A DNA stretch of 62,480 bases, counting the filler. It is 3 parts of 3 records of this genome, joined end to end, with 100 filler letters (N's around TTAATTAATTAA, not from the genome) between each part and the next. Parts side by side here need not be neighbours in the genome. Positions count along the whole stretch, not along the records: positions 52,004 to 62,480 come from SRR22947725_842; 2 more parts are not named here. The stretch is one strand, 5' to 3'. The first letter of the stretch is position 1. Each line of letters starts with the position of its first letter. Below, one piece after another: positions 35,254 to 62,480 of this stretch. The notes beneath the pieces were generated by a model that saw nothing but the letters and a program-made list of their open reading frames with translations, was not told the origin of the DNA and ran no database searches. The position numbers were made by a program, and so were the translations under genes.

Positions 35254-35258
35254 AATAA

Positions 35259-35483: not shown

Positions 35484-35487
35484 ATTT

Positions 35488-37449: not shown

Positions 37450-37500
37450 ATTAAAAATTTTTGTAAAAATACAATAGTTATTTCTAGAATTAAGAAGTAA

Positions 37501-37917: not shown

Positions 37918-37924
37918 AGTTGTA

Positions 37925-38005: not shown

Positions 38006-38022
38006 TTAGTAAGAACACTACA

Positions 38023-38835: not shown

Positions 38836-38847
38836 TTATTTTATATT

Positions 38848-40415: not shown

Positions 40416-40478
40416 ATTATGTATAATACGTAAAATTACAAAAAACAAATCTTAAGATATCATTCAAATTAATTATTA

Positions 40479-40486
40479 TAACTTTG
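40479..40486 (+). promoter_or_regulatory. -7 promoter element
   Basis: TAACTTTG 19 nt before the LicC-like ATG. Confidence 0.6.
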
Positions 40487-40505
40487 ATAAAATTAATCTG
40501 AAAAT

Positions 40506-42963: not shown

Positions 42964-43000
42964 AAGGTTATTTTTATATTTGATGTAAATATATTTATTA

Positions 43001-43570: not shown

Positions 43571-43581
43571 TAAATTACAAA

Positions 43582-46528: not shown

Positions 46529-46547
46529 TTAGATGTAATTTAACTAA

Positions 46548-48542: not shown

Positions 48543-49731
48543 CTAAAACATTTTGAACTTTTTGAGCAGCCTCTTCAAATTCTACTGCACTTTGAACATC
48601 TAATCCAGAATTATCAATTATTTCCTTAGCTAGATCAGCATTTGTGCCTTGTAGTCTTACAATAATTGGAATGTTGATTGAATCCTTCATATTGTTGTAA
48701 GCATCAACAATTCCTTGGGCTACCCTATCACATCTTACAATACCTCCGAAAATATTAACTAAAATTGCTTTGACATTAGGGTCTTTTAAAATAATTCTAA
48801 ATGCAATTTCTACTCTTTCTGCATCAGCAGTACCACCAACATCTAAAAAATTTGCTGGTTCGCCCCCAGATTGTTTTATAAGATCCATAGTAGCCATGGC
48901 CAGTCCAGCACCATTAACCATACATCCAACATTTCCATCTAAATCAACATAATTAAGACCAACTTTATTAGCTTCAACTTCAATAGGATTCTCTTCTTTG
49001 AGATCTCTAAGCTGGGCATAATCTTTATGTCTAAATAGTGCATTGTCATCGATTGAAACTTTAGCATCAACAGCTAAAATTTTATCATCACTTGTTTTTA
49101 AAACTGGATTGATTTCAAACAATGAAGAATCTGATTTATCATATGCATTATAAAGAGAAACTACAAATTTGGTCATTTCCTTAAAAGCCAAACCACTTAA
49201 CCCTAAATTAAATGCAACTTGACGAGCTTGAAAAGGTAATATCCCCGTAGATGGGTCTATATCAACTGTATGAATTAAATGAGGAGTTTCTTCAGCAACA
49301 GTTTCAATATCAATACCACCCTCAGTAGAGTACATAATCATGTTATTTCCTGTAGATCTATTTAAAAGTACTGACATGTAAAATTCATTTGTTTCTGACT
49401 CGCCAGGATAATAAACGTCTTCAGCGATTAGGACCTGATGTACCTTCTTACCTTTTGCAGAAGTTTGAGGAGTAATAAGGTTCATACCAATAATATTGTT
49501 AGAAATGGATTTAACTTCATCTAAGTTTTTAGCAAGCTTAACTCCACCTCCTTTACCACGACCACCGGCATGTACTTGAGCTTTTATTACAAACCAACTC
49601 GTACCAGTTGTTTCAGTGAGTTTTTTTGCACACTCTACGGCTTCATCAGAATTTTGAGCAACTAAACCTCTTTGAATCCTAACTCCAAAACTACTTAACA
49701 TTTCTTTACCTTGATATTCGTGTAAATTCAT
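48535..49731 (-). CDS. sucC: succinyl-CoA ligase beta subunit
   Basis: MNLHEYQGK, KAQVHAGGRGKGGG, NGAGLAMATMD and NIFGGIVRCD motifs. Confidence 0.98.
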   Translation of the reverse strand: MNLHEYQGKEMLSSFGVRIQRGLVAQNSDEAVECAKKLTETTGTSWFVIKAQVHAGGRGKGGGVKLAKNLDEVKSISNNIIGMNLITPQTSAKGKKVHQVLIAEDVYYPGESETNEFYMSVLLNRSTGNNMIMYSTEGGIDIETVAEETPHLIHTVDIDPSTGILPFQARQVAFNLGLSGLAFKEMTKFVVSLYNAYDKSDSSLFEINPVLKTSDDKILAVDAKVSIDDNALFRHKDYAQLRDLKEENPIEVEANKVGLNYVDLDGNVGCMVNGAGLAMATMDLIKQSGGEPANFLDVGGTADAERVEIAFRIILKDPNVKAILVNIFGGIVRCDRVAQGIVDAYNNMKDSINIPIIVRLQGTNADLAKEIIDNSGLDVQSAVEFEEAAQKVQNVLAS

Positions 49732-49756
49732 AATTGGTATATAATAATTAGCAAGG

Positions 49757-49764
49757 CAAATGTA
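49757..49764 (-). promoter_or_regulatory. -7 promoter element of sucC
   Basis: TACATTTG on the minus strand, 25 nt before the ATG. Confidence 0.6.
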
Positions 49765-49839
49765 ATTAACCTCATGGATATGACCAACATTTAAAGTTAA
49801 TATATATTAACATTAACTATAAAGCTATATCTTTAATAA

Positions 49840-50967
49840 ATGGACAAAATTTTTGAAAAAATAATTAAATATTCACTACTATTTTCATTGATTTTTACAG
49901 AAAATTCTTATGCTCAATCTATAAGGTCTATTTTAAAAAATAGTGAGTCTGAATTAATTAATTATGTGTATAAGAACCAAGAAAAATTTGAAGTTCAAAT
50001 AATATTAACTGAATTAAAAAAAAGAAAAAATGGGTTTACAATACACAAGAAAAAATTTAATGTAGATAAAAAAAACTACTTCTACCCCGCTAGTTCTATA
50101 AAACTTCCAATTGCATTATTAACCATTGAAAAAATAAATGAAAATCCTAATTTAAACATCAATAGCGAATTTTTAATTGAAGGTGACTCTATAATTACTA
50201 CATTCAAAAAAGAAATAACAGATTTATTTATAATTAGTAGTAATGAGTCTTATAATAGATTATTTGAATTCTTAGGACAAGACTACATCAATAAAAAGCT
50301 TAAACAAAAGGGCTTTAAAGATTTTAGTATTTCTCATAGATTATCAACTGATAAATCTGATAATTTAAAAACAAAAGAAATTAATTTTTATAGAAATGGA
50401 GAAATAAATCAAATACAAAAATCAATTAACAACAAACCTCTAACAAAATTAAATTTGAAAAATTTAAATAAGGGGGTTGGTTTCACATTAGACAATGATC
50501 TACAAAATAAATCAATGGATTTTTCAAGAAAAAATTATTTTTCCATTGAGGAATTGAATAATATTTTAATCTGTTTGTTTTTTCCTGAAGTTTCAAAAAA
50601 TAAAAAATTTAATTTATCTAAATCACAGAACCTTTTAATACAAAAGTTAATGTCTTCAACTCCTCTTGACATGGGATTTGATAAAAATATATATCCAAAT
50701 AATTATAATAAATTTTTTATATACGGAGATAAAGATGGCATGATAAATGATAATATTTATAATAAAGTTGGTAATGCTTATGGGTACAGTATAGATAACG
50801 CATATATATACAATAAAAGTTCTAATCGACACTTTGTATTAACTGCGTGTATATATACAAATTCAAATAATATTCTTAATGATAATAAATATGAATATGA
50901 TGAGATTGGTATTCCATTTCTGGCAAAAATTGGTAGATTTTTAACCAATTACAATTTTAGGCAATAA
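49840..50967 (+). CDS. class A beta-lactamase-like serine hydrolase, exported
   Basis: YPASSIK (SxxK), SSN (SDN-like) and NKVG (KTG-like) motifs plus a signal peptide. Confidence 0.8.
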   Translation: MDKIFEKIIKYSLLFSLIFTENSYAQSIRSILKNSESELINYVYKNQEKFEVQIILTELKKRKNGFTIHKKKFNVDKKNYFYPASSIKLPIALLTIEKINENPNLNINSEFLIEGDSIITTFKKEITDLFIISSNESYNRLFEFLGQDYINKKLKQKGFKDFSISHRLSTDKSDNLKTKEINFYRNGEINQIQKSINNKPLTKLNLKNLNKGVGFTLDNDLQNKSMDFSRKNYFSIEELNNILICLFFPEVSKNKKFNLSKSQNLLIQKLMSSTPLDMGFDKNIYPNNYNKFFIYGDKDGMINDNIYNKVGNAYGYSIDNAYIYNKSSNRHFVLTACIYTNSNNILNDNKYEYDEIGIPFLAKIGRFLTNYNFRQ

Positions 50968-51028
50968 TTTAACCCTCTATATTTATTTAAAATGTTATTT
51001 TTGAATCGTTAAAAAAACAATGACTTAA

Positions 51029-51903
51029 ATGATAAGAAAAATATGTTTACTTATATTATTAGTATTCCAATTATCTTTCGGTCAACAGGGTAATATACCA
51101 CCTGAAATTTCATCTGAAAATTTAAATGAATTCTATTGTCCTCTAGGAGAGCAGAATATTGTCACCAGCTTTGATATAGTAGATCCAGATGATGATTCTA
51201 TATTAGCCTTATACATTCAAATATCTGAGGGATATGTTCAAGGAGAAGACTTACTTACCTTGACTGGTGTACACCCAGGTATTCAAGAAACTTGGGATCC
51301 AGTTTCTGGAAAATTAGAACTCAAAGGTCCAGGAGGAGGTGAAGCCTTATATGCAGATATAATCCCAGCTGTTTATGATGTTAGATTTAATAGTACTAAT
51401 AATAACCCAGTAGATAAGTCCTTCTCTTTTACTATTGGAAATGCTAATTTTTTACCATCAACTGGGCATTTCTATGAATATATTGATGTTCTTGGAATCA
51501 CATGGCAACAAGCCAAGACAGCAGCTGAAAATCAGTTTTATTTTGGTTTACAAGGATATTTAGCAACTATAATGAGTCCAGAAGAATCACAAATAGCCGT
51601 TGAACAAGCTAGTGCGACTGGATGGATTGGCGCATCAGACTTCACAAATGAAGGGCAATGGAATTGGGTGACAGGGCCTGAAGCAGGAACAAATTTTTGG
51701 AATGGTAACTTTAATGGATCAGCAGCAGCTGGAATGTATTCAAATTGGAATAATGACCCACCTGAACCTAATCAGACAGGAGAAGAAGATTTTGCTCACA
51801 TAACTGATCCTTCAATTGGCTTGATAGGCTCTTGGAATGACCTAAGTAATACTGGTCCTGGATCAGGGCCCTATCAACCCAAAGGATATATTGTTGAATT
51901 TGG
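51029..51903 (+). CDS. secreted protein with C-type lectin-like domain, 3'-truncated at linker
   Basis: Signal peptide, GHFYEY...ITWQQAK..A.....GYLATI...E, WIGASD...EGQWNW.TGPE, EPN and WND motifs. Confidence 0.82.
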
Positions 51904-52003
51904 NNNNNNNNNNNNNNNNNNNNNNNNNNNNNNNNNNNNNNNNNNNNTTAATTAATTAANNNNNNNNNNNNNNNNNNNNNNNNNNNNNNNNNNNNNNNNN
52001 NNN
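51904..52003. other. artificial contig linker N44-TTAATTAATTAA-N44
   Basis: Identical in structure to 22233-22332. Confidence 0.97.
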
Positions 52004-52434
52004 TGAAAACAGTAAATATTTATACAGATGGTGCTTGTAGAGGAAATCCTGGTATCGGTGGATGGGGTGTGTTAATTGAATATGAAGATTTTAATAAAGA
52101 ATTATTTGGTGGAGAGAAGCACACTACCAATAATAAAATGGAGCTTATGGCAGCAATTCAAGGCTTAAAAGCCTTAAATGAAAATTGCATTGTTCACCTA
52201 ACCACTGACTCAAAGTATGTGATGGATGGTATAAATAGCTGGATAATGAATTGGAAAAAAAATAACTGGAAGAACTCACAAAAACAGAGTGTTAAAAATA
52301 AGGATTTATGGATCCAATTAGATAAACTTAATGAACAACATGATGTAAACTGGCATTGGGTTAAAGGTCATTCAGGACATCCTCAGAATGAATTAGCAGA
52401 CCAATTAGCTAACAAAGGCATAGATACTTTATAA
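52004..52434 (+). CDS. rnhA: ribonuclease HI (first base of the start codon lost at linker)
   Basis: (x)TG AAA ACA... gives [35 protein letters not shown] and WVKGHSG...NELAD motifs. Confidence 0.96.
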
Positions 52435-53151
52435 ATGAATAAAAAATACATCATTCTCGATACAGAAACCACTGGCCTAGAGGTGCAGCAAGGACATAGA
52501 GTTATTGAAATAGGCGCAGTGCTTCTCAATGACAGAAAGAAGTCTGAAGAAAATTTTCATTCCTACCTTAACCCTGAAAGACTAATTGATGATGAGGCCT
52601 CTAAAGTACATGGCATTACAAATGCTGACCTTGATGACAAACCATTCTTCTCTGATATAGTTGAAGAGTTCCTTGAATTTATAGAGGGCTCAACTCTAGT
52701 TATCCATAATGCGCCATTTGATGTTGGCTTCCTTAATAATGAAATTAATTTAGTTTCATCTAAACTTCCAAAACTTGAAGATATATGTGAAATAGAGGAT
52801 TCATTATTAATCGCAAGAGATAAATTTCCTGGCCAAAGAAATTCTCTTGATGCTTTGGCAAATCGATTTGAGGTAACTGGCTATGATAGAAGTTTTCATG
52901 GAGCTTTGCTTGATGCAAATATTCTTGCAGACGTCTATATGATGCTTACGGGTGGTCAAAGTAAATTTGAATTCATGAATGATTCTTCCATAGCAAATGT
53001 TATTAAAAAAGATACAGCCAATAATTTAAGTTTTGAAGGCATTAATCTAGTTAGACTCAAATCAAATGATGAGTATGATCAAAGACATTCAAAAAGACTT
53101 TCAGAAATTTCTGAAAAGTACTCTATTGATACAATTTGGAGCAAACATTGA
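52435..53151 (+). CDS. dnaQ: DNA polymerase III epsilon subunit
   Basis: LDTETTG, IHNAPFDVGF, HGALLDA and MLTGGQ motifs. Confidence 0.96.
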   Translation: MNKKYIILDTETTGLEVQQGHRVIEIGAVLLNDRKKSEENFHSYLNPERLIDDEASKVHGITNADLDDKPFFSDIVEEFLEFIEGSTLVIHNAPFDVGFLNNEINLVSSKLPKLEDICEIEDSLLIARDKFPGQRNSLDALANRFEVTGYDRSFHGALLDANILADVYMMLTGGQSKFEFMNDSSIANVIKKDTANNLSFEGINLVRLKSNDEYDQRHSKRLSEISEKYSIDTIWSKH

Positions 53152-54536
53152 AAGTAGTTACAAGATTCGCGCCGAGCCCAACTGGAACGCTTCATATTGG
53201 AGGTGTTCGAACTGCTCTATTTAATTATGTGTATGCAAAAAAAATGGATGGTTTATTTCTAATACGAATTGAAGATACTGACAGACAACGCTCAACTAAA
53301 GAATTTGAAAAAAATATTTTAGACAGTCTTAGCTCTATAGGATTAAAACCAGATTTGGACCCTATAAATCAATCCGAAAGAACTGATATTTACACCAAAG
53401 CTGCAAATGAAATCTTCAATAGCGGCAATGCATATTACTGTAACTGTTCTAAAGATAGGCTTGATGAGATGAGATCACTGCAGCAGGCTAATGGCCAAAA
53501 GCCTCAATATGATGGCAAATGTAGAAACTTAAATCTAGAAAAATCTGACAATACTGTATTAAGGCTCAAGACCCCACTTGATGGCCAAATTATTATGAAA
53601 GATTATGTTAGAGGCGATATATCATTTAATAACTCTGAACTTGATGATTTAATAATCTTAAGAAGTGATGGAACGCCAACATATCATTTGTGCAACGTGG
53701 TTGATGATTTTGAACAAGGTGTAACTACTGTTATAAGAGGCGAGGATCACATCTCCAATACACCTCGTCAAATCCATATTCAACAAGCTCTTGGATATCC
53801 GGAGCTTGAGTATGCCCATCTTCCTTTGGTTCTTGGATCTGACAAGAAAAGGCTATCTAAAAGACATGCTGCCACTAGCCTTGAAGAATACAAGAACGAA
53901 GGATATCTCGACTCTGCTATTTTAAATACCCTGGCAAGACTGGGTTGGTCCAAGGGAGAGAAAGAGGTTTTTTACTTAAATGACTTGATAAAAGATTTTG
54001 AAATAACCGAAGTGCAAAAAGCAGGCGCAATTTTTGATATGACAAAGCTGGATTGGTTAAATACTCAGCATTTAGCAAACCTATCACTGGATGAATTTAA
54101 AACACACCTAAAACCTTTTCTAGTATCAATAAATATAAATATAAATGATCACCCTAAGTCTGATTTGTTAATTGATGCAATGAGATCTTCTGAATCTAAC
54201 TTATTAAATATTGCAAAAGGTTTATCACCTTATTTTAATGGTGTAGATGAATATGAGCCAAAGGCAGTTAAAAAGTTTCTTGCTGAATCAGGTAATGTGC
54301 TTTCATCAATATCCACTATATTAAATGACTTGGAGCATTGGAATGAAGAGAATATAGATATTGCTTTAAAAGAGTTTCAATCATCTTCAGGCTTACCTAC
54401 TCCTAAAGTTAATCAGCCTATTCGAATAGCGTTAACTGGTGGAACAAAATCCCCATCTCTTGGGCTAACTCTTGAGATTATTGGCAAAAATGATTCTTTG
54501 TTTAGAATTTCTAAAGCTTTAAATTTTATTAGCTAG
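53148..54536 (+). CDS. gltX: glutamate--tRNA ligase
   Basis: RFAPSPTG.LHIGG, RIEDTD, RGEDH and RLSKR motifs. The TTG start at 53148 has SD GGAG and a TTGA overlap with dnaQ. Confidence 0.96.
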   Translation: MKVVTRFAPSPTGTLHIGGVRTALFNYVYAKKMDGLFLIRIEDTDRQRSTKEFEKNILDSLSSIGLKPDLDPINQSERTDIYTKAANEIFNSGNAYYCNCSKDRLDEMRSLQQANGQKPQYDGKCRNLNLEKSDNTVLRLKTPLDGQIIMKDYVRGDISFNNSELDDLIILRSDGTPTYHLCNVVDDFEQGVTTVIRGEDHISNTPRQIHIQQALGYPELEYAHLPLVLGSDKKRLSKRHAATSLEEYKNEGYLDSAILNTLARLGWSKGEKEVFYLNDLIKDFEITEVQKAGAIFDMTKLDWLNTQHLANLSLDEFKTHLKPFLVSINININDHPKSDLLIDAMRSSESNLLNIAKGLSPYFNGVDEYEPKAVKKFLAESGNVLSSISTILNDLEHWNEENIDIALKEFQSSSGLPTPKVNQPIRIALTGGTKSPSLGLTLEIIGKNDSLFRISKALNFIS

Positions 54537-55436
54537 GCTTTTTACAAACTCTATAAATTTTTTAGATTCTTCGCTTATTGCTTTTGATTGATTGTTAAGC
54601 AGAACTATTTGGTAGGGAAGGCTCTCTTCAATCTCAAATATATCTACCTTAGTTTCATCACAATTCTTTGCTGTATATGAATCAACAAGGGCACTCCCCA
54701 TTCCAAGGCTTACAAGAGAGGCTGCACCACTATAGGATGAAACCTTGCCAGCTATATTACTTCCAATTGGTTTTTTATTAAAATGTTCAGTTAGGGAACT
54801 AACCCCATAGAATGAAATTAAATTTGTTATCTCTATAAAAGGCTCATGTGAAAAATGATCCAATTTGTATGCAGGTTTATTTTTATATATGTCTTTTGGA
54901 GAGATCATTACATGAGAACCTTTATGTATTATATGTCTTGAGTATTGGTTTTCATCTAGGTGATTGGACCCTCTATTTGAAATAGCTGGATCAAAACAAA
55001 TAACAATATCTATACTTTTATTATCAAGTCTGTTTAACAACTCATTGCTATTAAGATTTATAAAGTTAAATCCAGTTTTATTTCCTAACTTTTCATACTC
55101 TTTAAGTATCTTAGGCATAAGCGTAAGCATGATAGATGGTGTTGTTCCAATATTAATATCTTCAGAATCAAGCGGAATTAACTTCTCAGCTGTCTTATTG
55201 AAATTTTCAAGTTGAAAGATAACCATTGAAGCGTATTCATAGAGCTCATTTGCTTCATCTGTAGCTATAAGTTTTTTTGAATCCCTATTAAAAAGTTTAA
55301 AACCTAATTTTTTTTCAGTATATGAAATTGATTTACTTAAAGCCGGCTGAGAAACATTTAAAACATTGGCTGCTTTTGTAATAGATCCTTCTTTATAGAT
55401 ATGATAAAAAATTTCTATTTGTTTAGAATTAAGCAT
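54519..55436 (-). CDS. LysR family transcriptional regulator (alternative start 55454)
   Basis: HTH GSITKAANVLNVSQPALSKSI...EKKLGFKLFNR, about 305 aa, divergent from the TBDR. Confidence 0.93.
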   Translation of the reverse strand: MLNSKQIEIFYHIYKEGSITKAANVLNVSQPALSKSISYTEKKLGFKLFNRDSKKLIATDEANELYEYASMVIFQLENFNKTAEKLIPLDSEDINIGTTPSIMLTLMPKILKEYEKLGNKTGFNFINLNSNELLNRLDNKSIDIVICFDPAISNRGSNHLDENQYSRHIIHKGSHVMISPKDIYKNKPAYKLDHFSHEPFIEITNLISFYGVSSLTEHFNKKPIGSNIAGKVSSYSGAASLVSLGMGSALVDSYTAKNCDETKVDIFEIEESLPYQIVLLNNQSKAISEESKKFIEFVKSLANKI

Positions 55437-55452
55437 ATTAGAGCTACTATAC

Positions 55453-55467
55453 ATAACCTAAAGTTAT
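55453..55467. promoter_or_regulatory. putative LysR recognition site (T-N11-A palindrome)
   Basis: ATAAC-CTAAA-GTTAT in the lysR/TBDR divergent gap. Confidence 0.7.
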
Positions 55468-55499
55468 TTTTATAGTCGTTTTTATTATATCTATTTATA

Positions 55500-55529
55500 T
55501 AGACAACTTTACAAATGTAGTTTTATAAT
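55500..55529 (+). promoter_or_regulatory. putative sigma70 promoter of the TBDR operon
   Basis: TAGACA-N18-TATAAT, with SD AGGGGA before the ATG at 55571. Confidence 0.5.
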
Positions 55530-55570
55530 TAAGTTAGAAATTTATAACTATAATTCATAGGGGATAATGA

Positions 55571-58561
55571 ATGAAAACTATCAAATCTTTCTTGGTGCTA
55601 GCTCTAGCTATGCCATTTGTAATTCAAGCTCAAGACGATACTGCTGCAGCAGATGTTGAAGAGGTTGTTGTTGTTGGTACTCAAATTAAAGGCGCAAACA
55701 TTGCGGGAATTTTGCCAGTAACTGTCATTACAGCAGAAGATATAGAAGCACTTGGAGTTGATTCCGGTGATGAGCTTTTAGAAAATATTGCTGAACAGGG
55801 GCTTAACTATTTTAATGAATCAGAAATGGCATCAGGTGGAGTCAATGCTGCTAGGGGAGATATGGGAGCATATAACCTTAGAAATTTAGGAGTTGGTAAT
55901 ACTCTTACTTTATTAAACGGGAGAAGGCTTGTAACCTCACCAGGTTATCAAACTGAATTAATTGGTGGTGATTTTGTACCCACTACAACGGTTAATTCAC
56001 AGCTAGTTCCAGTATACGGCCTTGAAAGATTAGAAATTCTTAGAGATGGTGCTTCTGCTATTTATGGAGCTGATGCTGTTGCAGGTGTTGTTAATAATGT
56101 AATGCAATCTGATTATGAAGGTTTAGTAATTAGAGGAAAAGTTACAGCATTTGATCACTTTGAAACAGAAGATAAAACTATGTCCATTAAATGGGGTAAG
56201 AATTTTGGAAAAACAAATGTAAGTGCTTTTTTTGATAGTTATGACAGAGGTTCAATTGAAGCAAGTGAAGACCCAAGATGGGCAGATTCCGATCATAGAA
56301 AATGGGTTCCTGAAGATTCCCCTTGGTTTGGAAGCGCAAGTTTTAATAATACCTCCACTAACTCACTTTATGGCCAGTTTGATATGGTCAGTAGTTCAAC
56401 AAGTATTGCAGGAACAGCATACGATAGAGTATGGACTGACAGTTCTGGAGAGTTTGAAATATTCCCTCTTGGCGATCCAAGATGTTCAAATCGTTCAAGC
56501 CAAGATGGAGTTGTTTTTGATACTGGTTATGGAACTTGTATAGCTGAAGATGGTAATGGAGTAGAGAGATATAATTTATGGGGACTTACTCAAAAAAGAG
56601 GTAAGCTTGAAAGACAAAATCTCTTAGTATTTATCAATTCAGAGCTTTCAAATGGTGTTGAGACATTCACTGAAATTGGCTACTACACTTCAGAAAGTGA
56701 AAGAAGAAACCATCCTTCATATGCCTTTACATCTTCAAAGCATAGAGTTGGTCCAGACAATTATTGGTTAAACCAGATGACAGTTCCAGATGGAACTGCA
56801 ATATTTGCAGGTAAAGAGTTATATATTGATAACTATAGATATGCAGAAGTACCAAGAATGACTTATGTAGACAAAGAAACATATAGATTTCTTCAAGGTT
56901 TTAGAGGTACTACAGGAAATTGGGATTGGGAAACTGCATTAGTTTACTCAAAGGCTACATCTGATGACCTTACTAAAAACAGAATATCTAATACTTTATT
57001 AAAAGAAGCTTTATATGACGATACTCCAGCTGCTTATAATCCATTTAGTGCTGGTGTTGCTTCAAATATAGAAAGAGTTCTTGTTGATGTTACTAGGTTT
57101 GGTACAAGCTCATTAACATCTTTTGATTTCAAGATGGTAAACCCCGAAATGTTTACTTTGCCTGCTGGACCAGTAGCAGTTTTACTTGGTTTTGAGGTAA
57201 GAGATGAAGTTATTACTGATAATAGAGATGATAGACTGGATGGAACAATAGACTATTGTGACTATGAGAACGATTGCTATCCATTAGTTGCTGATGTTGT
57301 TAACTCAAGTCCTACTGGAGATGTATCGGGCGAAAGGCAGACTACATCATTGTTTGTTGAATTAAATGCTCCTATTACAGATTCTATTTCTACTCAACTA
57401 GCTGTTAGACATGAAAGTTCTGATGATTTTGCTTCTGCAACTGTTGGTAAGTTTGCTATAGGCTGGGAAGTAAATCAAAGCTTATCACTTAGAGCCTCTG
57501 CATCAACTGCATTTAGAGCTCCTAATATAATTCAACTTAATGAAGGTGGAGTTGTTAGGTCTGGAACAAGTGATGACTGGGTTGTTCAAAGAGTTCAAGA
57601 TGTTTTGAATGAAGCAGGTGGTTATGATGGTGATACAAGTATCACAGATTCAGATATAGACTCTTCATACACAATCCAAAGAAGAGCTGTTGGAGGAAAT
57701 AAGTTAGATGCTGAAGAATCAACTAATAGCTCTGTAGGTCTTGTTTATACTCCAGAAATGGTTCCTGGTTTAATTGTTACTCTTGATCAATGGTCTATTG
57801 AAAAAGAAAAAACTATTGGTTTGTTTGGACGTGAGAACCAAATTGTTAATGACATGCTTTTAAGATTTGAAAATGGTTTAAATAACTGTAATTCATTTAT
57901 AGGTGATCCATTGGTTGTTCGTGAAGCGCCAGATGCCGGAGATGCTGGATACTTTACTGCCGCTGGAATTTGTCCAGCTGGAGTAGTTAAGTATGTTCAA
58001 AATGATTATACAAACATGGCAACAAGAAACTTATCTGGAACTGATATTGGCGTTTACTATGATATCGACACCAAGTATGGAGATTTTGGACTTAAGTATA
58101 TTGGAAGTAAAACCGATGAATTCACTCAAGATGCATCAGGTGAATTTGCTTTCCTTCAATCACAAAAAGATGCTGGGTTAATTCCTGCTAATATCCCACT
58201 AGATGGATTTGGTGATTTGTTGGGTATGGACGGAAACTATGACACAAAACATACTGTAAAAGCATCATGGAGAATGGGTGACTGGGGGGCTACAATGTCT
58301 ATGCTTCAAAAAGGAGAGTTTTATCAAAATTCTTTAACTTTAAGCGATGGTACAAGATACGTAATTCCTGAAATGACTACTATCGATGCTACTGTTTCAT
58401 ATTCATTCAGAATGAACGGCAATAAGGCAAGATTAAGGTTTGCTGTTAAAAACTTAGAAGATGAAAGAGCGCCTTTAGCAGATAGGTATTATGGTTACTA
58501 TGCTGATGCTCATCAAGATTATGGTAGAAACTACTACTTAGATTTAAGAGTTACATTCTAA
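55571..58561 (+). CDS. TonB-dependent receptor
   Basis: Signal peptide, TonB box EEVVVVG, plug NLRNLG...TLLNGRR and ERLEILRDGASAIYGADAVAGVVN, C-terminal YLDLRVTF. Confidence 0.96.
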   Translation: MKTIKSFLVLALAMPFVIQAQDDTAAADVEEVVVVGTQIKGANIAGILPVTVITAEDIEALGVDSGDELLENIAEQGLNYFNESEMASGGVNAARGDMGAYNLRNLGVGNTLTLLNGRRLVTSPGYQTELIGGDFVPTTTVNSQLVPVYGLERLEILRDGASAIYGADAVAGVVNNVMQSDYEGLVIRGKVTAFDHFETEDKTMSIKWGKNFGKTNVSAFFDSYDRGSIEASEDPRWADSDHRKWVPEDSPWFGSASFNNTSTNSLYGQFDMVSSSTSIAGTAYDRVWTDSSGEFEIFPLGDPRCSNRSSQDGVVFDTGYGTCIAEDGNGVERYNLWGLTQKRGKLERQNLLVFINSELSNGVETFTEIGYYTSESERRNHPSYAFTSSKHRVGPDNYWLNQMTVPDGTAIFAGKELYIDNYRYAEVPRMTYVDKETYRFLQGFRGTTGNWDWETALVYSKATSDDLTKNRISNTLLKEALYDDTPAAYNPFSAGVASNIERVLVDVTRFGTSSLTSFDFKMVNPEMFTLPAGPVAVLLGFEVRDEVITDNRDDRLDGTIDYCDYENDCYPLVADVVNSSPTGDVSGERQTTSLFVELNAPITDSISTQLAVRHESSDDFASATVGKFAIGWEVNQSLSLRASASTAFRAPNIIQLNEGGVVRSGTSDDWVVQRVQDVLNEAGGYDGDTSITDSDIDSSYTIQRRAVGGNKLDAEESTNSSVGLVYTPEMVPGLIVTLDQWSIEKEKTIGLFGRENQIVNDMLLRFENGLNNCNSFIGDPLVVREAPDAGDAGYFTAAGICPAGVVKYVQNDYTNMATRNLSGTDIGVYYDIDTKYGDFGLKYIGSKTDEFTQDASGEFAFLQSQKDAGLIPANIPLDGFGDLLGMDGNYDTKHTVKASWRMGDWGATMSMLQKGEFYQNSLTLSDGTRYVIPEMTTIDATVSYSFRMNGNKARLRFAVKNLEDERAPLADRYYGYYADAHQDYGRNYYLDLRVTF

Positions 58562-58576
58562 AATGGTATAAACTTT

Positions 58577-58601
58577 AAAGGGAGCATGTGCTCCCTTTTT
58601 T
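58577..58601 (+). terminator. intrinsic terminator / stabilising hairpin after the TBDR
   Basis: AAAGGGAGC-ATGT-GCTCCCTTT followed by a T run. Confidence 0.85.
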
Positions 58602-58614
58602 ATTGGAATTAATT

Positions 58615-60114
58615 ATGCATGCATATAAGAATAAAGGTTTCTGGATAGGTTTGATGGCGTTTTTCATCATCCTATTGATTGGTATTAATGGAAGCTTGCC
58701 ATCAAGCTTAATTGCGCTAGATGGTACTGCCTTTGAAACAAATAAAGGTACACAATTTATAAATAGTCAGTCAGCATGGTTTGTTTTAGCTGTATTGGTT
58801 TTGATGGCAATTTGGTGGGCAACTGAAGCACTCCCCGTTGCAGTTACTTCCCTCTTGCCTTTAGCATTATTTCCTCTTTTGAATGTGGCAACCTTTCAAG
58901 CCTCAGCAAATCCTTATGCTAATAAAAATATTTATCTTTTCCTTGGTGGTTTTATTTTGGCGCTTGGTATAGAAAGATCTGGACTTCATAAGCGAATAGC
59001 TCTTGTAATGATATCTGCTATAGGGTCATCTGGAGAAAGGTTGATTGGTGGGTTTATGCTTGTTGCAGCAATGCTAAGTATGTTTGTGATGAATACTTCT
59101 ACCACTTTAATGCTTTTACCAATTGGATTAGCAGTTTGTACAGTAATAGCTTCTACAACTCCTGGGATTAGCAATATTCAAAGAAAGAATTTTGATACCG
59201 CTTTGATGTTAGGTATTGCATATGCGGCAACTATTGGTGGTATGTCCACTATTATTGGGACTGCGCCTAACATAGTTTTTGTAACATTTATGAGTGAAAC
59301 ATATGGAGTAGAAATTGATTTTTTTAGCTGGATGAAAGTAGGAGTCCCGGTATCAATTTCGATGTTAATAGCTGCCTGGTTTATTCTTGCAAAATATATT
59401 TTTCCTACAAATTTTAATTCCTCAAACGAAACTAGAATAGAACTTAATAAAATGGTTCAGGATTTAGGTCCCATAAGGAAAGATGAGATTAAAGTTGGTT
59501 TTATATTTGGACTTGCAGTTATTGCCTGGATGACAAGTAGGGTTGTTAGAACCCAATTTGGAATTGGGTTAGAGGATGCTGGCATAGCTATTATAATAGC
59601 TATACTTCTATTCATAATTCCTTCATCAGAAAATAATAAAGATTTAATGGTATGGACTGAGACGTCAAAATTACCATGGGGTTTGTTGTTACTATTTGGA
59701 GGCGGGCTATCTCTTGCTGCTCAAGTTTCTAGCACTGGTTTAGGTATTTGGATAGGGCAAGGTTTAACAGTCTTAAAAGATGTTGAACCAATAATATTAA
59801 TTTTTGCTATTGCTACTTTGATAATTTTCTTAACAGAAATGACAAGTAATGTTGCTACAACAAGTACATTTCTTCCTGTGATTGGTTCCTTGGCAATAGC
59901 TCTAGGGGTTGTACCAGTCTCCTTAACAATACCAGTGTGCTTGGCAGCAAGTTGTGCATTCATGCTTCCAGTAGCCACTCCCCCAAATGCAATTGTTTAT
60001 GGTTCAGGAAAATTTACTATAGCAACAATGATGAAAGCAGGTTTCTTTATTAATATAATTGGGATATTAGTAGTAACATTTTTCTCATATTATTTAGCAC
60101 CAATGGTTTTTTAA
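58615..60114 (+). CDS. DASS/SLC13 sodium-coupled anion (dicarboxylate) symporter
   Basis: WATEALP, MNTSTT, IGTAPN, LLFGGG, TEMTSN and AFMLPVATPPNAI motifs. Start moved to ATG 58615 because GTG 58588 lies inside the terminator hairpin. Confidence 0.92.
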   Translation: MHAYKNKGFWIGLMAFFIILLIGINGSLPSSLIALDGTAFETNKGTQFINSQSAWFVLAVLVLMAIWWATEALPVAVTSLLPLALFPLLNVATFQASANPYANKNIYLFLGGFILALGIERSGLHKRIALVMISAIGSSGERLIGGFMLVAAMLSMFVMNTSTTLMLLPIGLAVCTVIASTTPGISNIQRKNFDTALMLGIAYAATIGGMSTIIGTAPNIVFVTFMSETYGVEIDFFSWMKVGVPVSISMLIAAWFILAKYIFPTNFNSSNETRIELNKMVQDLGPIRKDEIKVGFIFGLAVIAWMTSRVVRTQFGIGLEDAGIAIIIAILLFIIPSSENNKDLMVWTETSKLPWGLLLLFGGGLSLAAQVSSTGLGIWIGQGLTVLKDVEPIILIFAIATLIIFLTEMTSNVATTSTFLPVIGSLAIALGVVPVSLTIPVCLAASCAFMLPVATPPNAIVYGSGKFTIATMMKAGFFINIIGILVVTFFSYYLAPMVF

Positions 60115-60115
60115 A

Positions 60116-61828
60116 ATGAAAAAAATTTACTCTATAATTTTTTATTTCTCATTTGTAGGAGCTCAAGATAGTTATATTGACTATGTTTCTCCTTTTCATC
60201 CTTCCTCAAGCTCAAGCGGGATGGTCGTTTCTCAAAACTACTTATCTTCAGAAATTGGTATAGAAATTTTAAATAAAGGAGGAAATGCAATTGATGCTGC
60301 TGTTGCTGTAGGATTTTCTCTGGCAACTACATTGCCTAGAGCAGGAAATCTTGGTGGTGGTGGCTTTATGTTAGTTTATTTAAAAGAAAGAAATGAAATT
60401 TTTTATATTGACTATCGAAGTAAATCCCCACTTAACTCAAATATTAAAGAATTATTTAACAAGAAATTGCCGAGAGATTATAAAAGAGTAAATTTTGATA
60501 TTGTTAAAAAAGGCTATAAAGCATCTGCAGTTCCTGGAAGTGTGGCTGGATTGTTAGATGCCCATGCTGCATTTGGAAAATTACCCCTTCAAGATATTCT
60601 TGAGCCTGTTATAAATCAAGCGCTTGCAGGTATAGAGGTTAGTTATGATTTAAATAAGGCAATTGAGAGCAGTCAGCAACTCAAGGAAGACCCAGAGTCT
60701 AAAAGAATTTATTACAAGGATGGTAAAGCGCTTAAAGTTGGGTCAATAATGAAGAGACCAGATTTAGCAAATACATTCACTATTATTTCAAAAAATGGGA
60801 AGAAGGGCTTTTATGAGGGAGAAATCGCTAATAAGTTTGTTGACTCTATGAAAAAGAATAAAGGTTTTTTTTCACATGAAGATTTACTTTCATATAAATC
60901 AACCACGAGTCATCCAATAGTTGGTTCTTATAGAAATAACTTAGTCTTTACAGCAGGTCCGCCTTCAGGTGGTGGCGTTGTTCTTTTAACAGCTTTAAAT
61001 ATCCTTAGTTTTTATGACCTTTCGTTACTGGATAGCAACTCTGCAAAAACATATCATTTATTGGCTGAAGCATTAAGAAGGGGTCATAACAACAGATCAC
61101 ATCAGATTGGAGATCCAAATTTATATAATGTACCTATTGATGTTTTACTATCAAAAGAAAGAATGAAAGAATTAGCTAAAGGTTTAAATATGAACAAGGC
61201 TACACCAAGCTCTAAAGTTAAACCTATGAGAGTTCTCAAAGAAAGCAGAGATACTACTCATTATTCAATAATTGATAAAGAAGGCAATGCAGTCTCAAAT
61301 ACCTACACCCTAGGTTACTCATTTGGCTCTGGTGTAACAATTCCTGGTACTGGAATATTGATGAATAATCAGATGAATAATTTTGCTTATAGATATGGGG
61401 ATTCATCGATTGAAGGAAGGGTGGCAAGTCCTGCAAATAGATTTCAGCCCGGAAAAAAGCCAATGAGCACCATGGCTCCATCTATGGTTTTTAATGAGCA
61501 GGGTGAGCTTATGCTAATAACAGGTTCTCCTGGAGGGTCTTATATACCTGCAGCAATATTAAGAGTAGTTTCTGGAGTAATAGATTTTAAGTTAGGTATA
61601 GGCGAGGCAACTATGCTTCCAAGAATACATAAGGATTGGCCTTATTCTGGGCTGGATTATGAAAAAACGATGAGTAAAGATACTGCTGACATATTAACTA
61701 ATTTAGGACACAAGCCAGAAACTAACAAAACTATGGGCAGCACCCAAAGTATTTTTATTAAAGATGGAATTAACTATGGATACTCAGATTTAAGAAGACC
61801 CAATGCAGGAGTTGCAACCCAAGATTAA
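60116..61828 (+). CDS. ggt: periplasmic gamma-glutamyltransferase-family Ntn hydrolase with altered donor pocket
   Basis: GGNAIDAAVA, GNLGGGGF, DYR, AVPG, autoprocessing D|TTHYS, GSPGG and DLRR motifs plus a signal peptide. Confidence 0.93.
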   Translation: MKKIYSIIFYFSFVGAQDSYIDYVSPFHPSSSSSGMVVSQNYLSSEIGIEILNKGGNAIDAAVAVGFSLATTLPRAGNLGGGGFMLVYLKERNEIFYIDYRSKSPLNSNIKELFNKKLPRDYKRVNFDIVKKGYKASAVPGSVAGLLDAHAAFGKLPLQDILEPVINQALAGIEVSYDLNKAIESSQQLKEDPESKRIYYKDGKALKVGSIMKRPDLANTFTIISKNGKKGFYEGEIANKFVDSMKKNKGFFSHEDLLSYKSTTSHPIVGSYRNNLVFTAGPPSGGGVVLLTALNILSFYDLSLLDSNSAKTYHLLAEALRRGHNNRSHQIGDPNLYNVPIDVLLSKERMKELAKGLNMNKATPSSKVKPMRVLKESRDTTHYSIIDKEGNAVSNTYTLGYSFGSGVTIPGTGILMNNQMNNFAYRYGDSSIEGRVASPANRFQPGKKPMSTMAPSMVFNEQGELMLITGSPGGSYIPAAILRVVSGVIDFKLGIGEATMLPRIHKDWPYSGLDYEKTMSKDTADILTNLGHKPETNKTMGSTQSIFIKDGINYGYSDLRRPNAGVATQD

Positions 61829-62479
61829 TTATTTTCTATAATCTAAAGGCGGATCTCTGTCCCCTAAAAGGGGTACGTAATTAAAAGCATTTCCTGTGTT
61901 AGCTTTATGTTCTAATTTTGCTTCTTCAATCAACTCAGGGCTTTTAAACAACTCTATAGCACTCGAGGTTAAGGTTTTAGCAGCTAGTTCAGCACCTTTT
62001 AATCCAATTGACGTTCCTCCGGATGCAACAGCTTGCCATGAATGCGCTGATGTACCAGGCACCCATGAAGAGGTTCTAAAACCGGCTGTTGGAACATTCC
62101 AGCTAATATCTCCAACATCTGTTGACCCATAAGATTGAGTTTTTTGAAAAGGTTGTATCAATTCTTCTTGCCCAAAAAGCTCTTCTTTTAAAACTAATGT
62201 CTTAGCAATACTTTTAGCATATTCTAATTCTTGATCTGTATATGAAATACCACCATGTGACATAAGATTTTTATGTATTAATTTTTGAAGAGTTAGATTT
62301 GGTAGTAAAGAATAATTACCATGCATTACCTCATAGGTTATTTTAGTCTCAGTTCCAAGGGCAGCCCCTTCGGCAGCCTTAACAACTCTTTGAAACAAGC
62401 TTTCAACAATATCCATCTTTGGATGCCTAACATAGTAATAAACCTCAGCCTCTTCAGGAACAACATTTGGAGCCAACCC
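61829..62479 (-). CDS. M20 amidohydrolase, AbgB (p-aminobenzoyl-glutamate hydrolase B)-like, 5'-truncated
   Basis: GLAPNVVP...YYYVR, AEGAALGT, GSTDVGDISWNVPT, PGTSAHSWQ and PPLDYR motifs. Confidence 0.88.
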   Translation of the reverse strand, partial: GLAPNVVPEEAEVYYYVRHPKMDIVESLFQRVVKAAEGAALGTETKITYEVMHGNYSLLPNLTLQKLIHKNLMSHGGISYTDQELEYAKSIAKTLVLKEELFGQEELIQPFQKTQSYGSTDVGDISWNVPTAGFRTSSWVPGTSAHSWQAVASGGTSIGLKGAELAAKTLTSSAIELFKSPELIEEAKLEHKANTGNAFNYVPLLGDRDPPLDYRK

Positions 62480-62480
62480 A

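Follow-up and report, generated by a model that had tools for sequence, protein, structure and literature searches.

We identified in SAR86 a gene module in which an exported GGT-family enzyme of variant type is linked to a TonB-dependent receptor (TBDR). With a probability of about one in two, this module serves the TonB-dependent uptake and periplasmic cleavage of γ-glutamyl amides whose α-amino group is substituted, the likeliest substrates being D-glutamate fragments: either peptidoglycan stem peptides (L-Ala-γ-D-Glu-diaminopimelate) or oligo- or poly-γ-glutamate. In other bacteria, relatives of the key enzyme are encoded beside D-glutamate-processing genes, and the set therefore probably harvests glutamate-containing fragments, such as cell-wall peptides.

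Organization and conservation of the locus

The window, that is, the whole 62,480-nt stretch that was analysed, is DNA of SAR86. SAR86 is an abundant ocean bacterium. The locus comprises a LysR gene on the minus strand, TBDR, DASS and GGT-family genes on the plus strand, and a convergent M20 amidohydrolase gene (Table 1). These families had been named in a first-pass annotation and were recovered by profile searches, the M20 enzyme through TIGR01891. The arrangement described there, with a divergent LysR and a palindromic operator, co-directional TBDR, DASS and GGT genes separated by 1 nt at the DASS/GGT junction, and an M20 gene abutting the GGT stop, was likewise confirmed.

Table 1. Features of the SAR86 locus (positions in the window)
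Feature	Position	Strand	Evidence and remarks
LysR-type regulator ORF	54519..55454	−	Pfam HTH_1 and LysR_substrate; likely start ATG 55436 (305 aa)
Inverted repeat ATAAC-N5-GTTAT, T-N11-A type, candidate LysR box	55453..55467	.	Sequence reading, conservation
Promoter-like site for the TBDR gene, TAGACA-18 nt-TATAAT	55500..55529	+	Best scan match, 11/12 positions
TonB-dependent outer-membrane receptor, 996 aa	55571..58561	+	Plug and TonB barrel domains
Intrinsic-terminator-like hairpin, 9-bp stem, 5 G-C pairs, T-run	58577..58606	+	Between TBDR and DASS; hairpin proper 58577-58598
DASS (SLC13/INDY-type) sodium-coupled anion symporter	58588..60114	+	TIGR00785; likely start ATG 58616
Exported GGT-family Ntn hydrolase, variant type	60116..61828	+	PF01019, TIGR00066, alignment to 2e0w
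M20 amidohydrolase (TIGR01891), C-terminal 216 aa; gene runs off the window	61829..62480	−	Profile match

Co-occurrence of the genes in related genomes, a check set beforehand, was positive across 61 species-level SAR86-type genomes and persisted through three layouts. In one of these, the TBDR-DASS-GGT block was inverted, while the M20 gene and a thiolase-like gene stayed on their own side; layout C was devoid of gltX, yet kept TBDR, GGT and DASS. The variant GGT gene was preceded by the same TBDR gene in all 49 assessable SAR86-type loci. Of 47 loci, 45 had DASS no more than 6 kb from GGT; of 38, 29 had M20 no more than 9 kb from GGT and 31 had gltX as a neighbour. The variant gene was carried by roughly one in two genomes sampled from the SAR86 order.

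The TBDR scored 51.6 bits on PF07715 and 77.5 bits on PF00593, began with a signal peptide, contained the TonB-box-like stretch EEVVVVG and ended in Phe, as is expected of a receptor of this family. It reached no substrate-specific NCBIfam model, and a search of solved structures gave no close one.

Predicted regulatory elements

The regulator had the N-terminal HTH_1 and substrate-binding domains of the LysR type and a divergent T-N11-A box, but no NCBIfam equivalog model scored at or above its cut-off. The start codon at 55454 was not conserved in two related loci (L010 and L112) and lies inside the palindrome, making a start at 55436 more likely. The arms of the inverted repeat were invariant in 6/6 related loci, against a mean column identity of 51% in the intergenic alignment, and LysR is predicted to bind this repeat. 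Of the 38 SAR86-type loci that could be assessed, only 14 had the LysR gene. Both hexamers of the putative TBDR promoter, together with a GGGGAT ribosome-binding site, were also invariant in 6/6 related loci, although the promoter scan overall was no richer than shuffles (27 sites versus a mean of 30.3).

According to its folding energy (−13.8 kcal/mol) and its T-run, the hairpin that splits TBDR from DASS-GGT is terminator-like. A similar hairpin and T-run followed the TBDR stop at no more than 90 nt in 54/54 loci, both arms of the stem varying (GGGAGC/GCTCCC, GGGAGT/ACTCCC and GGGAAC/GTTCCC). Since the GTG at 58588 sits inside this hairpin, DASS more likely starts at ATG 58616.

The GGT-family enzyme

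The enzyme, which has the signal peptide MKKIYSIIFYFSFVGA, belongs to the GGT family (MEROPS T03), scoring 481.9 bits on PF01019 and 480 bits on TIGR00066 (cut-off 357.85). On PRK09615 it scored 447 bits, under the cut-off of 990. It aligned with E. coli GGT (2e0w) over residues 25-561 with 392.7 bits. In this alignment, Thr380, the nucleophile at the autoprocessing site, matched E. coli Thr391; the oxyanion residues Gly473-Gly474 matched Gly483-Gly484. The α-carboxylate contacts were kept as Arg101, Ser451 and Thr452 (E. coli Arg114, Ser462 and Ser463), the last being a conservative replacement. By contrast, two of the three α-amino contacts were not: Gly400, Gln419 and Asn422 stand at the positions of E. 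coli Asn411, Gln/Glu430 and Asp433. A lid loop similar in length to that of E. coli GGT is present, with Glu433 in place of the lid residue Tyr444.

Among orthologs, Gly at 411 and Asn at 433 (E. coli numbering) were invariant (58/58), as was the Thr nucleophile; the Gly-Gly pair was found in 57/58, the one exception being an incomplete sequence with a gap there. The lid position was variable, and Tyr444 was absent throughout. Four of the 61 loci, in which the match was split or short, did not enter these counts. The first-pass description of an atypical GGT that has lost amine recognition thus holds at the residue level, two of the three α-amine contacts being changed in every ortholog. Elsewhere in each of four SAR86 genomes, a canonical GGT carried Asn, Glu and Asp at 411, 430 and 433. 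Gly411 and Asn433 occurred together in 10 of the 150 nearest representatives of 50% clusters, and Asn411 with Asp433 in 116. The variants formed one clade (28 tips, support 0.877) in which none had Asp at 433. Identity between the SAR86 and non-SAR86 variants was only 40-47%, and their substrates may differ.

The natural variant is altered at the same positions as published GGT mutants. In the excerpted text of PMC8062742, Asp433/Asp445 contacts the donor α-amino group, and Tyr444-Asn411 forms a gate over the pocket. With the D433N substitution, E. coli GGT loses transpeptidation and gains glutaryl-7-ACA acylase activity, while retaining 82% of its hydrolytic activity on an ordinary γ-glutamyl substrate; Y444A raises the acylase activity, as does the B. 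subtilis triple substitution E423Y/E442Q/D445N (same excerpt).

Variant GGT loci outside SAR86

An orthologous TBDR gene was found in 9/9 non-SAR86 variant GGT loci, compared with 0/36 canonical GGT loci; the nine represent eight genomes from at least two classes, and include close kin and two loci from one genome. Reciprocal full-length best matches (∼495-500 bits) linked the window TBDR to those that neighbour the variant GGTs of a Sphingomonas genome, whereas other TBDRs of a SAR86 genome (G002) scored at most 91 bits.

Several neighbours in these loci point to D-amino acids. D-Aminoacylase-like genes occurred in six of the nine; the copy in locus L205 scored 216 bits against D-aminoacylase (PDB 1m7j) and 147 bits against N-acyl-D-glutamate deacylase (3gip). 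Five loci had D-amino-acid-dehydrogenase-like genes, five had GltP-type (SDF), GltS or TAXI-type carriers, and five had a second, lid-less GGT with Glu at 411 and Asp at 433. DgcN and DgcA were encoded in two: L201, where they exceeded the NCBIfam cut-offs (DgcN, 506 bits versus 480; DgcA, 415.7 versus 400) and DgcA also matched the model for L-Ala-D/L-Glu epimerase with 317.5 bits, and L205, which has homologs. A link to dgcN/dgcA, raised in the first-pass annotation, therefore held for the variant clade outside SAR86 but not for SAR86 itself, as DgcN was found in 0/4 SAR86 genomes searched. This co-occurrence narrows the list of substrates toward D-Glu peptides or poly-γ-glutamate. It is not exclusive to the variant, because the canonical GGT of locus L233 also adjoins DgcA-DgcN. 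The SAR86 locus is without a D-aminoacylase gene, and a DadA-like gene was present in only 2/4 SAR86 genomes, distant from the locus.

The symporter and the M20 amidohydrolase

The symporter belongs to the DASS family (TIGR00785, 290.7 bits versus a cut-off of 198.6). Its best solved relatives were NaCT (253 bits), NaDC1 (243), VcINDY (207) and NaS1, which carries sulfate (202); scores of 202-253 bits thus span transporters of citrate, of dicarboxylates and of sulfate, and score alone does not separate substrates. Of the hairpin-tip motifs, the second is Ser-Asn-Val, as in NaCT, and the first is Met-Asn-Thr where NaCT has Ser-Asn-Thr. The protein was the sole full-length DASS in each of four SAR86 genomes. 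To our knowledge, no DASS member carries amino acids or dipeptides.

The full-length M20 enzyme, of 477 aa, was examined in locus L008, which is 97-99% identical to the window. It scored 246.2 bits on TIGR01891 (cut-off 153.75), and its ACGH and PAEEGG stretches aligned with those of HmrA. Among solved relatives, HmrA was the best match (123.6 bits), compared with 55.3 bits for the Abg protein 3io1 and 26.6 for carboxypeptidase G2, and the enzyme was closer to Xaa-Arg dipeptidase than to either of the latter two. A signal-peptide-like N-terminus was present in 38/39 orthologs, so that the enzyme is probably periplasmic, unlike AbgB. The earlier label 'AbgB-like' is therefore too specific, only the broad TIGR01891 model being matched, and a cytoplasmic last step is improbable. 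In the loci inspected, the neighbourhoods contained no AbgT, no AbgA and no second M20 gene. Because the inversion is confined to the TBDR-DASS-GGT block, M20 may lie next to it in SAR86 through conserved synteny of the flank. A 57%-identical M20 copy lies 1.4 kb downstream of a variant GGT in L208, an unrelated locus. Characterized M20 enzymes of the TIGR01891 group mostly act on N-acyl-L-amino acids.

Proposed mechanism

The TBDR would capture the compound at low concentration and deliver it into the periplasm. There, the variant GGT would bind the glutamyl α-carboxylate normally and, judging from its residue pattern, would offer no pocket for a free α-ammonium group; it would cut the γ-amide to yield an N-acyl-glutamate and the leaving amine. 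The exported M20 enzyme would cut the remaining N-acyl-Glu bond, a step for which non-SAR86 relatives would use a D-aminoacylase instead. The anionic product would be imported by DASS, and in the relatives by GltP-type, GltS or TAXI-type carriers. Where present, LysR would switch the TBDR promoter via the conserved T-N11-A box, and the conserved terminator after the TBDR gene would set a lower level for DASS-GGT. Several observations weigh against this reading: SAR86 lacks DgcN in the four genomes searched and a D-aminoacylase in the locus, characterized M20 enzymes of the group mostly prefer N-acyl-L-amino acids, and the nearest solved DASS relatives transport citrate, dicarboxylates or sulfate.

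The first-pass annotation had proposed a complete pipeline of this kind. Gene co-occurrence and the loss of amine contacts in GGT agree with it; the signal peptide of M20, the presence of LysR in a minority of loci and the terminator between TBDR and DASS-GGT do not. We infer both the completeness of the pipeline and the identity of its substrate.

Alternative explanations

The residue pattern could instead denote a glutaryl-type acylase system, which we consider unlikely. The variant GGT would then be a natural enzyme resembling class IV cephalosporin acylases, hydrolysing amides of dicarboxylates that lack an α-amine (glutarate, 2-oxoglutarate or 2-hydroxyglutarate), and DASS would import the released dicarboxylate. 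The class IV hallmark, Asn for GGT Asp433, is present as Asn422. With class IV (glutaryl-7-ACA) acylases and the engineered D433N and E423Y-E442Q-D445N GGTs, the variant shares Asn433, Gln430 and the lack of a Tyr444 gate; changes at these positions give acylase activity on a donor without an α-amine, D433N alone being sufficient in E. coli GGT (excerpt of PMC8062742). Many glutaryl conjugates are hydrolysed by GGT variants, according to part of PMC11421214. An amine-free product would also best fit DASS, whose relatives carry di- and tricarboxylates and which is the only full-length member in the genomes searched. However, this explanation leaves the M20 enzyme without a role and does not account for the D-aminoacylase, DgcN-DgcA, D-amino-acid-dehydrogenase-like and glutamate-carrier genes beside the clade elsewhere. 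Moreover, the variant is distant from the sole solved 'cephalosporin acylase' (2nlz, 151.6 bits), and at position 411/423 the engineered enzyme carries Tyr, which takes up space that Gly leaves empty in the natural variant; the extra room would therefore suit a substituent on the α-nitrogen. We know of no natural glutaryl-amide nutrient.

It is improbable that the enzyme serves ordinary γ-glutamyl peptides, cleaving glutathione to provide cysteine to a cell unable to reduce sulfate. The gene is so read in passages of two SAR86 genome papers (PMC3358033, PMC11582366), the protein exceeds the NCBIfam GGT equivalog cut-off, and the hydrolysis retained by E. coli D433N means that the variant could still cleave glutathione, as far as the PMC8062742 excerpt goes. 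Nevertheless, in each of the four genomes another GGT, of the canonical type, keeps every amine contact, two of these contacts are changed in all 58 orthologs of the variant, and a dicarboxylate-type carrier and an M20 enzyme would have no role.

Folate-related scavenging is more doubtful still. The TBDR would import folylpoly-γ-glutamates, the variant GGT would act as a γ-glutamyl hydrolase on Glu acylated by p-aminobenzoate, and M20 would resemble carboxypeptidase G or AbgB. This chemistry is compatible with a blocked α-amine, and M20 has weak similarity to carboxypeptidase G2 and the Abg protein, but the enzyme is nearer HmrA and Xaa-Arg dipeptidase and appears to be exported, AbgT and AbgA were absent from the loci inspected, and the D-amino-acid genes beside relatives are left unexplained. 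Also against it, a table of Dupont et al. lists folate synthesis among the capacities of SAR86.

Finally, it is very improbable that the genes form no functional unit and mirror conserved gene order by dnaQ-gltX in streamlined SAR86 genomes: the frequent gltX neighbour, the fixed side of the M20 and thiolase-like genes and the terminator would fit, but the TBDR-variant GGT pairing recurs in all nine gltX-less loci outside SAR86, layout C retains the three genes, and DASS and GGT are 1 nt apart.

Comparison with known systems

The variant shares with E. coli periplasmic Ggt (PDB 2DBU/2DBX/2E0W) its fold and family, signal peptide, Thr nucleophile, oxyanion Gly-Gly, α-carboxylate Arg and a lid loop of like length. 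It differs in having Gly for Asn411, Asn for Asp433, Thr for Ser463 and no conserved Tyr444, and in its TBDR/DASS locus, the canonical paralog lying elsewhere in the genome.

GGT-family enzymes also act on γ-linked D/L-Glu polymers, as proposed here, in Bacillus poly-γ-glutamate degradation (endo-hydrolase PgdS and exo-acting GGT) and in B. anthracis CapD, which matched the variant weakly (122.9 bits). B. subtilis GGT starts at the amino end and frees both L- and D-Glu (PMC8062742, in excerpt). By analogy, the pairing of variant and lid-less GGTs in five of nine non-SAR86 loci could be an endo/exo division of labour. Unlike the Bacillus system, the present one is Gram-negative, TonB-receptor-fed and periplasmic, and the SAR86 locus is without a second GGT.

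In E. coli, murein tripeptide is broken down by MpaA, a cytoplasmic M14 metallopeptidase, YcjG and PepD: the γ-D-Glu-diaminopimelate bond is cut, and L-Ala-D-Glu is then handled. The logic proposed here is the same, and the DgcA beside the variant GGT in L201 matches the L-Ala-D/L-Glu epimerase model as well, but a periplasmic Ntn hydrolase would do the cutting, once TonB-dependent uptake had brought the peptide in. The DgcN-DgcA pathway of D-glutamate catabolism (Yu et al. 2023, ISME J 17:537, as cited in parts of PMC12363236 and PMC10845958) is encoded beside variant GGT and TBDR in L201 and L205. That pathway starts from free D-Glu, whereas the module would supply D-Glu from bound forms; dgcN was absent from the four SAR86 genomes. 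E. coli abgABT, for p-aminobenzoyl-glutamate utilization, likewise groups a broad-TIGR01891 M20 with an anion-type carrier and a regulator of the LysR type. By contrast, the M20 enzyme here is a single gene product, closer to HmrA and with a signal-peptide-like N-terminus, the carrier is DASS rather than AbgT, and TBDR and GGT are present.

Implications

Within the preferred reading, that of uptake and cleavage of α-N-substituted γ-glutamyl amides, a more specific version is tentative, and we hold it to be possible rather than probable. The variant GGT may be a periplasmic γ-D-glutamyl amidase for N-acylated D-isoglutamyl peptides, an Ntn-hydrolase route to the γ-D-Glu-diaminopimelate bond of peptidoglycan stem peptides, and its partner may be the first TonB-dependent receptor to specialize in cell-wall peptides. 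If so, SAR86 would be a major surface-ocean sink for peptidoglycan-derived, D-glutamate-bearing dissolved organic nitrogen.

Organization of the locus and signs of transcription

ORF and family-profile analyses of the final 8 kb of the window agreed with the gene order of the first-pass annotation: LysR, TonB-dependent receptor (TBDR), sodium-coupled anion symporter (DASS) and GGT-family protein, with a 1-nt gap between the last two and the M20 amidohydrolase gene abutting convergently at 61828/61829. The genes rnhA, dnaQ and gltX lie upstream of this LysR-to-M20 locus. We assign the window DNA to SAR86; over the whole stretch, its encoded proteins are 96–99% identical to those of L008, a contig from an uncultured SAR86 MAG (genome G002). 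Read past the window edge via L008, the M20 gene encodes 477 residues and matches TIGR01891 at 246 bits (cut-off 153.75).

Features of the locus and its upstream flank, in window coordinates
Feature	Coordinates	Strand	Basis or remark
Beta-lactamase-family ORF	49840-50967		
ORF with weak C-type-lectin domain match	51029-51955		
LysR-type regulator	54519-55454	minus	ORF and family profile
Inverted repeat ATAAC-N5-GTTAT	55453-55467		LysR–TBDR intergenic region
Promoter-like site TAGACA-18-TATAAT	55500-55529		best of scan, 11/12 positions; scan overall no richer than shuffles
Ribosome-binding site GGGGAT			LysR–TBDR intergenic region
TBDR, 996 aa	55571-58561	plus	ORF and family profile
Hairpin	58577-58598		−13.8 kcal/mol, T-run after
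Terminator-like stem GGGAGC/GCTCCC	58577-58606		
DASS-family symporter	58588-60114	plus	ORF and family profile
GGT-family protein, 570 aa	60116-61828	plus	start 1 nt past DASS stop
M20 amidohydrolase, 3' part	61829 to window end	minus	stop abuts GGT stop

The palindrome that had been described between LysR and TBDR was recovered. This repeat, TAGACA, TATAAT and GGGGAT were all invariant in six related loci, in an intergenic alignment with a mean column identity of only 51%. The LysR start is more likely 55436, because the ORF start at 55454 falls within the repeat and is not conserved. The called GTG start of DASS sits within the hairpin, and the ATG at 58616 appears likelier. A similar hairpin and T-run came 3' of the TBDR stop codon at 54 of 54 loci, and both arms of the stem had changed among them; the unit therefore looks like TBDR, terminator, then DASS–GGT. 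The terminator-like stem was almost unchanged, with paired changes, across orthologs that are 40–96% identical in protein. At the E-value threshold used, an Rfam search of 52000-62480 detected no riboswitch and gave two matches only, both at chance level. G+C content is very low where the two ORFs at 49840-51955 lie (0.22–0.27, versus ~0.35 around them).

RNA-library contigs from three studies matched the locus at ≥92% identity. Record 21 of contig set X5 (58606–60219) spans the DASS/GGT junction, and record 26 of set X7 (54677–58850) spans LysR, TBDR and the start of DASS. Contigs of sets X10 and X14, from two studies, cover TBDR and little beyond ~58.6 kb; the uncovered parts carry no weight. 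All four RNA runs are contigs, so depth cannot rank the genes, and for this reason, together with possible DNA carry-over, the bridging contigs are only a weak sign of transcription.

Active-site residues of the variant GGT

The receptor-linked enzyme, hereafter the variant GGT, aligned with E. coli GGT (2e0w) at 392.7 bits. In E. coli numbering, with the window's residue in brackets, it retains the nucleophile Thr391 (Thr380), Arg114 (Arg101), Ser462 and the oxyanion pair Gly483-Gly484. It differs at Asn411 (Gly400), Asp433 (Asn422), Ser463 (Thr452) and the lid residue Tyr444 (Glu433). Positions 411, 430, 433 and 463 were invariably Gly, Gln, Asn and Thr in 58 of 58 orthologs (the window and 57 loci, after omission of four others whose matches were split or short); the lid position was variable. 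Among the nearest 150 representatives in a library of 1.8 billion proteins, 116 had the canonical Asn411 and Asp433, 14 had Glu411 and Asp433, and 10, including the closest matches to the variant GGT, had Gly411 and Asn433. In a MAFFT/FastTree phylogeny, the variants grouped in a 28-tip clade (support 0.877) that lacked Asp433 throughout and was sister to the canonical clade (support 0.956). One Gly411/Asn433 representative, P0139, fell outside the variant clade.

According to a review of GGTs (PMC8062742), Asp433/Asp445 binds the donor α-amino group. The D433N substitution abolished transpeptidation, kept 82% of hydrolysis and conferred glutaryl-7-ACA acylase activity; Asn at 433 is the state in class IV cephalosporin acylases. 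Acylase activity was raised by Y444A or, in the B. subtilis enzyme, by E423Y/E442Q/D445N. The residue pattern points to the variant GGT being a natural enzyme that carries changes engineers made by hand. The earlier description of a GGT devoid of amine recognition is fair for this pattern; the functional consequence is what we infer from it.

Conservation of the locus within SAR86

One scan of species-representative genomes yielded 61 SAR86-type loci (GGT identity 57–97%), and, of 151 genomes sampled evenly across the order, 78 carried an ortholog of the variant GGT (E ≤ 1e-150). Neighbours were counted only at loci whose contig extends far enough. The co-occurrence expected from the first-pass annotation held for TBDR, found upstream on the same strand in 49/49, and for DASS, found within 6 kb in 45/47 and directly upstream in 33/47. 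M20 lay within 9 kb of the variant GGT in 29/38 loci and gltX in 31/38; LysR was found within that distance in only 14/38.

Three layouts were observed. In layout A, that of the window, dnaQ-gltX-[LysR]-TBDR-DASS-GGT is convergent with M20 and a thiolase-like gene. Layout B keeps these flanks but has the TBDR-(esterase-like)-DASS-GGT block in reverse orientation, which places M20 upstream of TBDR on the same strand. In layout C, DASS and LysR lie divergently from TBDR-GGT, followed by a GltP/DctA-type carrier, and both M20 and gltX are absent. From the inversion it is clear that TBDR-DASS-GGT moves together; alone, it is no proof that M20 belongs to the block. As a partner, M20 is independently supported by L208, a variant locus outside SAR86 whose M20 is 57% identical to that of SAR86. 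Of 39 M20 orthologs, 38 had a signal-peptide-like N-terminus and the remaining one is a match that starts at residue 43; both hydrolases are therefore probably periplasmic.

The thiolase-like gene (L008:13102-14586, minus strand; PRK08257-type, below cut-off) overlaps the M20 start by 46 nt and accompanies M20 in layouts A and B. L203 and L208 lack it beside M20, and it was set aside as a locus member. Layout B loci (L052-L056, L064 and L068) have a 293-aa ORF between TBDR and DASS (for example, L055:7676-8557) that resembles PHB-depolymerase-family esterases only faintly (E 3e-6); layout B also has an EthD-domain ORF 3' of GGT. Across L008-L068, TBDR was far more diverged from the window than its partner GGT (38–96% versus 57–97% identity), with identities apparently banded at ~90%, 50–65% and 38–48%; this divergence may reflect receptor replacement or fast evolution.

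In each of four SAR86 genomes, the DASS of the locus was the sole full-length member of its family, with one GltP-type carrier elsewhere. The variant ortholog was absent from G001, a genome that shares 34% of words with the window and has only about 70% DNA identity to it. G001 matched window 30001-50000 and 50000-62480 in short pieces only, at about 68–86% DNA identity, and a class search centred on it returned canonical GGTs only (36–40% identity). At the sequence level, G002, not G001, is the window's near relative. A metagenome scan with the variant profile added no new lineages; all matches were SAR86-like marine contigs (63–89% identity).

Variant GGTs outside SAR86

The variant clade is rare outside SAR86. 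Among 201 evenly sampled genomes of the order to which the Sphingomonas genome of L069 belongs, 5 had it. Of 36 places retrieved from 401 sampled genomes of the phylum, 4 were of the variant type, as were none of 5 more retrieved from 401 sampled genomes of the class. These variants are only 40–47% identical to those of SAR86. A TBDR homologous to the window's was present at 9 of 9 non-SAR86 variant loci (8 genomes, at least two classes) and at 0 of 36 canonical GGT loci, in a test that detects only relatives of two query TBDRs and in which kin loci are not independent. By the same test, a locus with Met411 and Asn433 (L210) had no homologous TBDR. The best full-length matches of the window TBDR in the Sphingomonas genome were the two TBDRs adjoining variant GGTs (494 and 472 bits). 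Searched against G002, the Sphingomonas TBDR matched the cluster TBDR at 500 bits, and every other TBDR of that genome at ≤91 bits in the plug region only. The variant-GGT receptors of SAR86 and Sphingomonas are, by sequence, orthologous.

The nine loci also carry genes related to D-glutamate metabolism and transport. A D-aminoacylase-type amidohydrolase was encoded at six (L199, L200, L201, L205, L206 and L213); that of L205 scored 216 bits against D-aminoacylase 1m7j and 147 bits against N-acyl-D-glutamate deacylase 3gip. Five had a flavoprotein resembling D-amino-acid dehydrogenase (best NCBIfam model, below cut-off), five a second, lid-less GGT with Glu411 and Asp433, five a GltP-type (SDF), GltS or TAXI-type binding protein, and five a LysR. 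The pairing with dgcN and dgcA envisaged in the first-pass annotation was borne out at two of the nine loci, L201 and L205; dgcN was found in 0 of 4 SAR86 genomes. In L201, DgcN scored 506 bits (cut-off 480) and DgcA, an N-acetyl-D-Glu racemase, 415.7 (cut-off 400). The genes of L205 lie on one strand in the order LysR-DgcN-DgcA-TBDR-D-aminoacylase-SDF-variant GGT-second GGT. In L208, the variant GGT is accompanied by two TBDRs, an M14 carboxypeptidase, a TAXI-type binding protein and M20. In an unrelated genome, a canonical GGT with all donor contacts directly adjoins DgcA and DgcN homologs (L233:9058-12871), so GGT-family enzymes generally may feed the D-glutamate pathway.

Proposed substrate and role

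We consider it about an even bet (probability roughly 0.5) that the locus serves TonB-dependent uptake and periplasmic cleavage of γ-glutamyl amides acylated on the α-nitrogen, with D-Glu-containing fragments the likeliest substrates. The shared logic would be a γ-glutamyl amide in which the α-carboxylate of glutamate is free and its α-nitrogen acylated; with Gly at 411 and no Tyr444 gate, the pocket would have room for the N-substituent. The D-isoglutamate of the peptidoglycan stem would fit, with L-Ala on its nitrogen and diaminopimelate or lysine on its γ-carboxyl, as would internal residues of poly-γ-glutamate and the first glutamate of folylpolyglutamates. Cleavage of the γ-bond would yield an N-acyl-(D-)glutamate; D-Glu would then be freed by a D-aminoacylase or by an M20 N-acyl-amino-acid hydrolase and converted by DgcN-DgcA or a dehydrogenase. 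Of this set, SAR86 would retain only TBDR, variant GGT, exported M20 and DASS, the last importing the anionic end product. Peptidoglycan peptides and poly-γ-glutamate are not separable from these data: the paired lid-less GGT, together with a PGA_cap-domain gene in L198, leans towards polyglutamate, and cell-wall peptides are favoured by the marine setting, the D-aminoacylase and DgcA/YcjG kinship. Dupont et al. proposed peptidoglycan degradation by SAR86 on other grounds (PMC3358033).

An unlikely alternative is that the variant GGT cleaves glutaryl-type amides. DASS carriers are known for di-/tricarboxylates and sulfate, which fits this reading at least as well as the one preferred here. In the engineered glutaryl acylase, as described in PMC8062742, position 411 is filled with Tyr, whereas the natural variant has Gly.

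Cleavage of an ordinary γ-glutamyl substrate such as glutathione is more doubtful still, even though E. coli D433N still hydrolyses the ordinary substrate (PMC8062742). SAR86 ranks with the most abundant bacteria of the surface ocean. Two SAR86 genome papers assign its ggt to glutathione cleavage for sulfur acquisition (PMC3358033, PMC11582366). Each of four SAR86 genomes (~1.3 Mb each) encodes three GGT-family proteins: a canonical GGT that has the full set of donor contacts, the variant, and a far more diverged paralog with Arg114 replaced by Ser and with Tyr at 411, Arg at 430 and Met or Leu at 433. The glutathione/sulfur role would suit the canonical paralog better than the variant. Since one of the three is receptor-linked and lacks the amine pocket, the published ggt reading should be split by paralog. 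Copies of the diverged paralog (L074-L077 in G002-G005, and L217:3285-4808) have His for Ser462, with Cys at 433 in L217, and retain the Thr nucleophile and Gly-Gly.

GGT-family enzymes and TonB-receptor-linked catabolic loci are known kinds; no earlier account of a locus joining TBDR, variant GGT and D-Glu genes was found in the literature searched, in which the original DgcN-DgcA study was covered via citing papers. Experiments are feasible in culturable Sphingomonas, which has orthologous loci. Should the module import D-Glu peptides, class IV cephalosporin-acylase-like GGTs would gain a natural role, and the locus would provide a concrete, testable gene set for asking who consumes peptidoglycan-derived D-amino-acid nitrogen in seawater.
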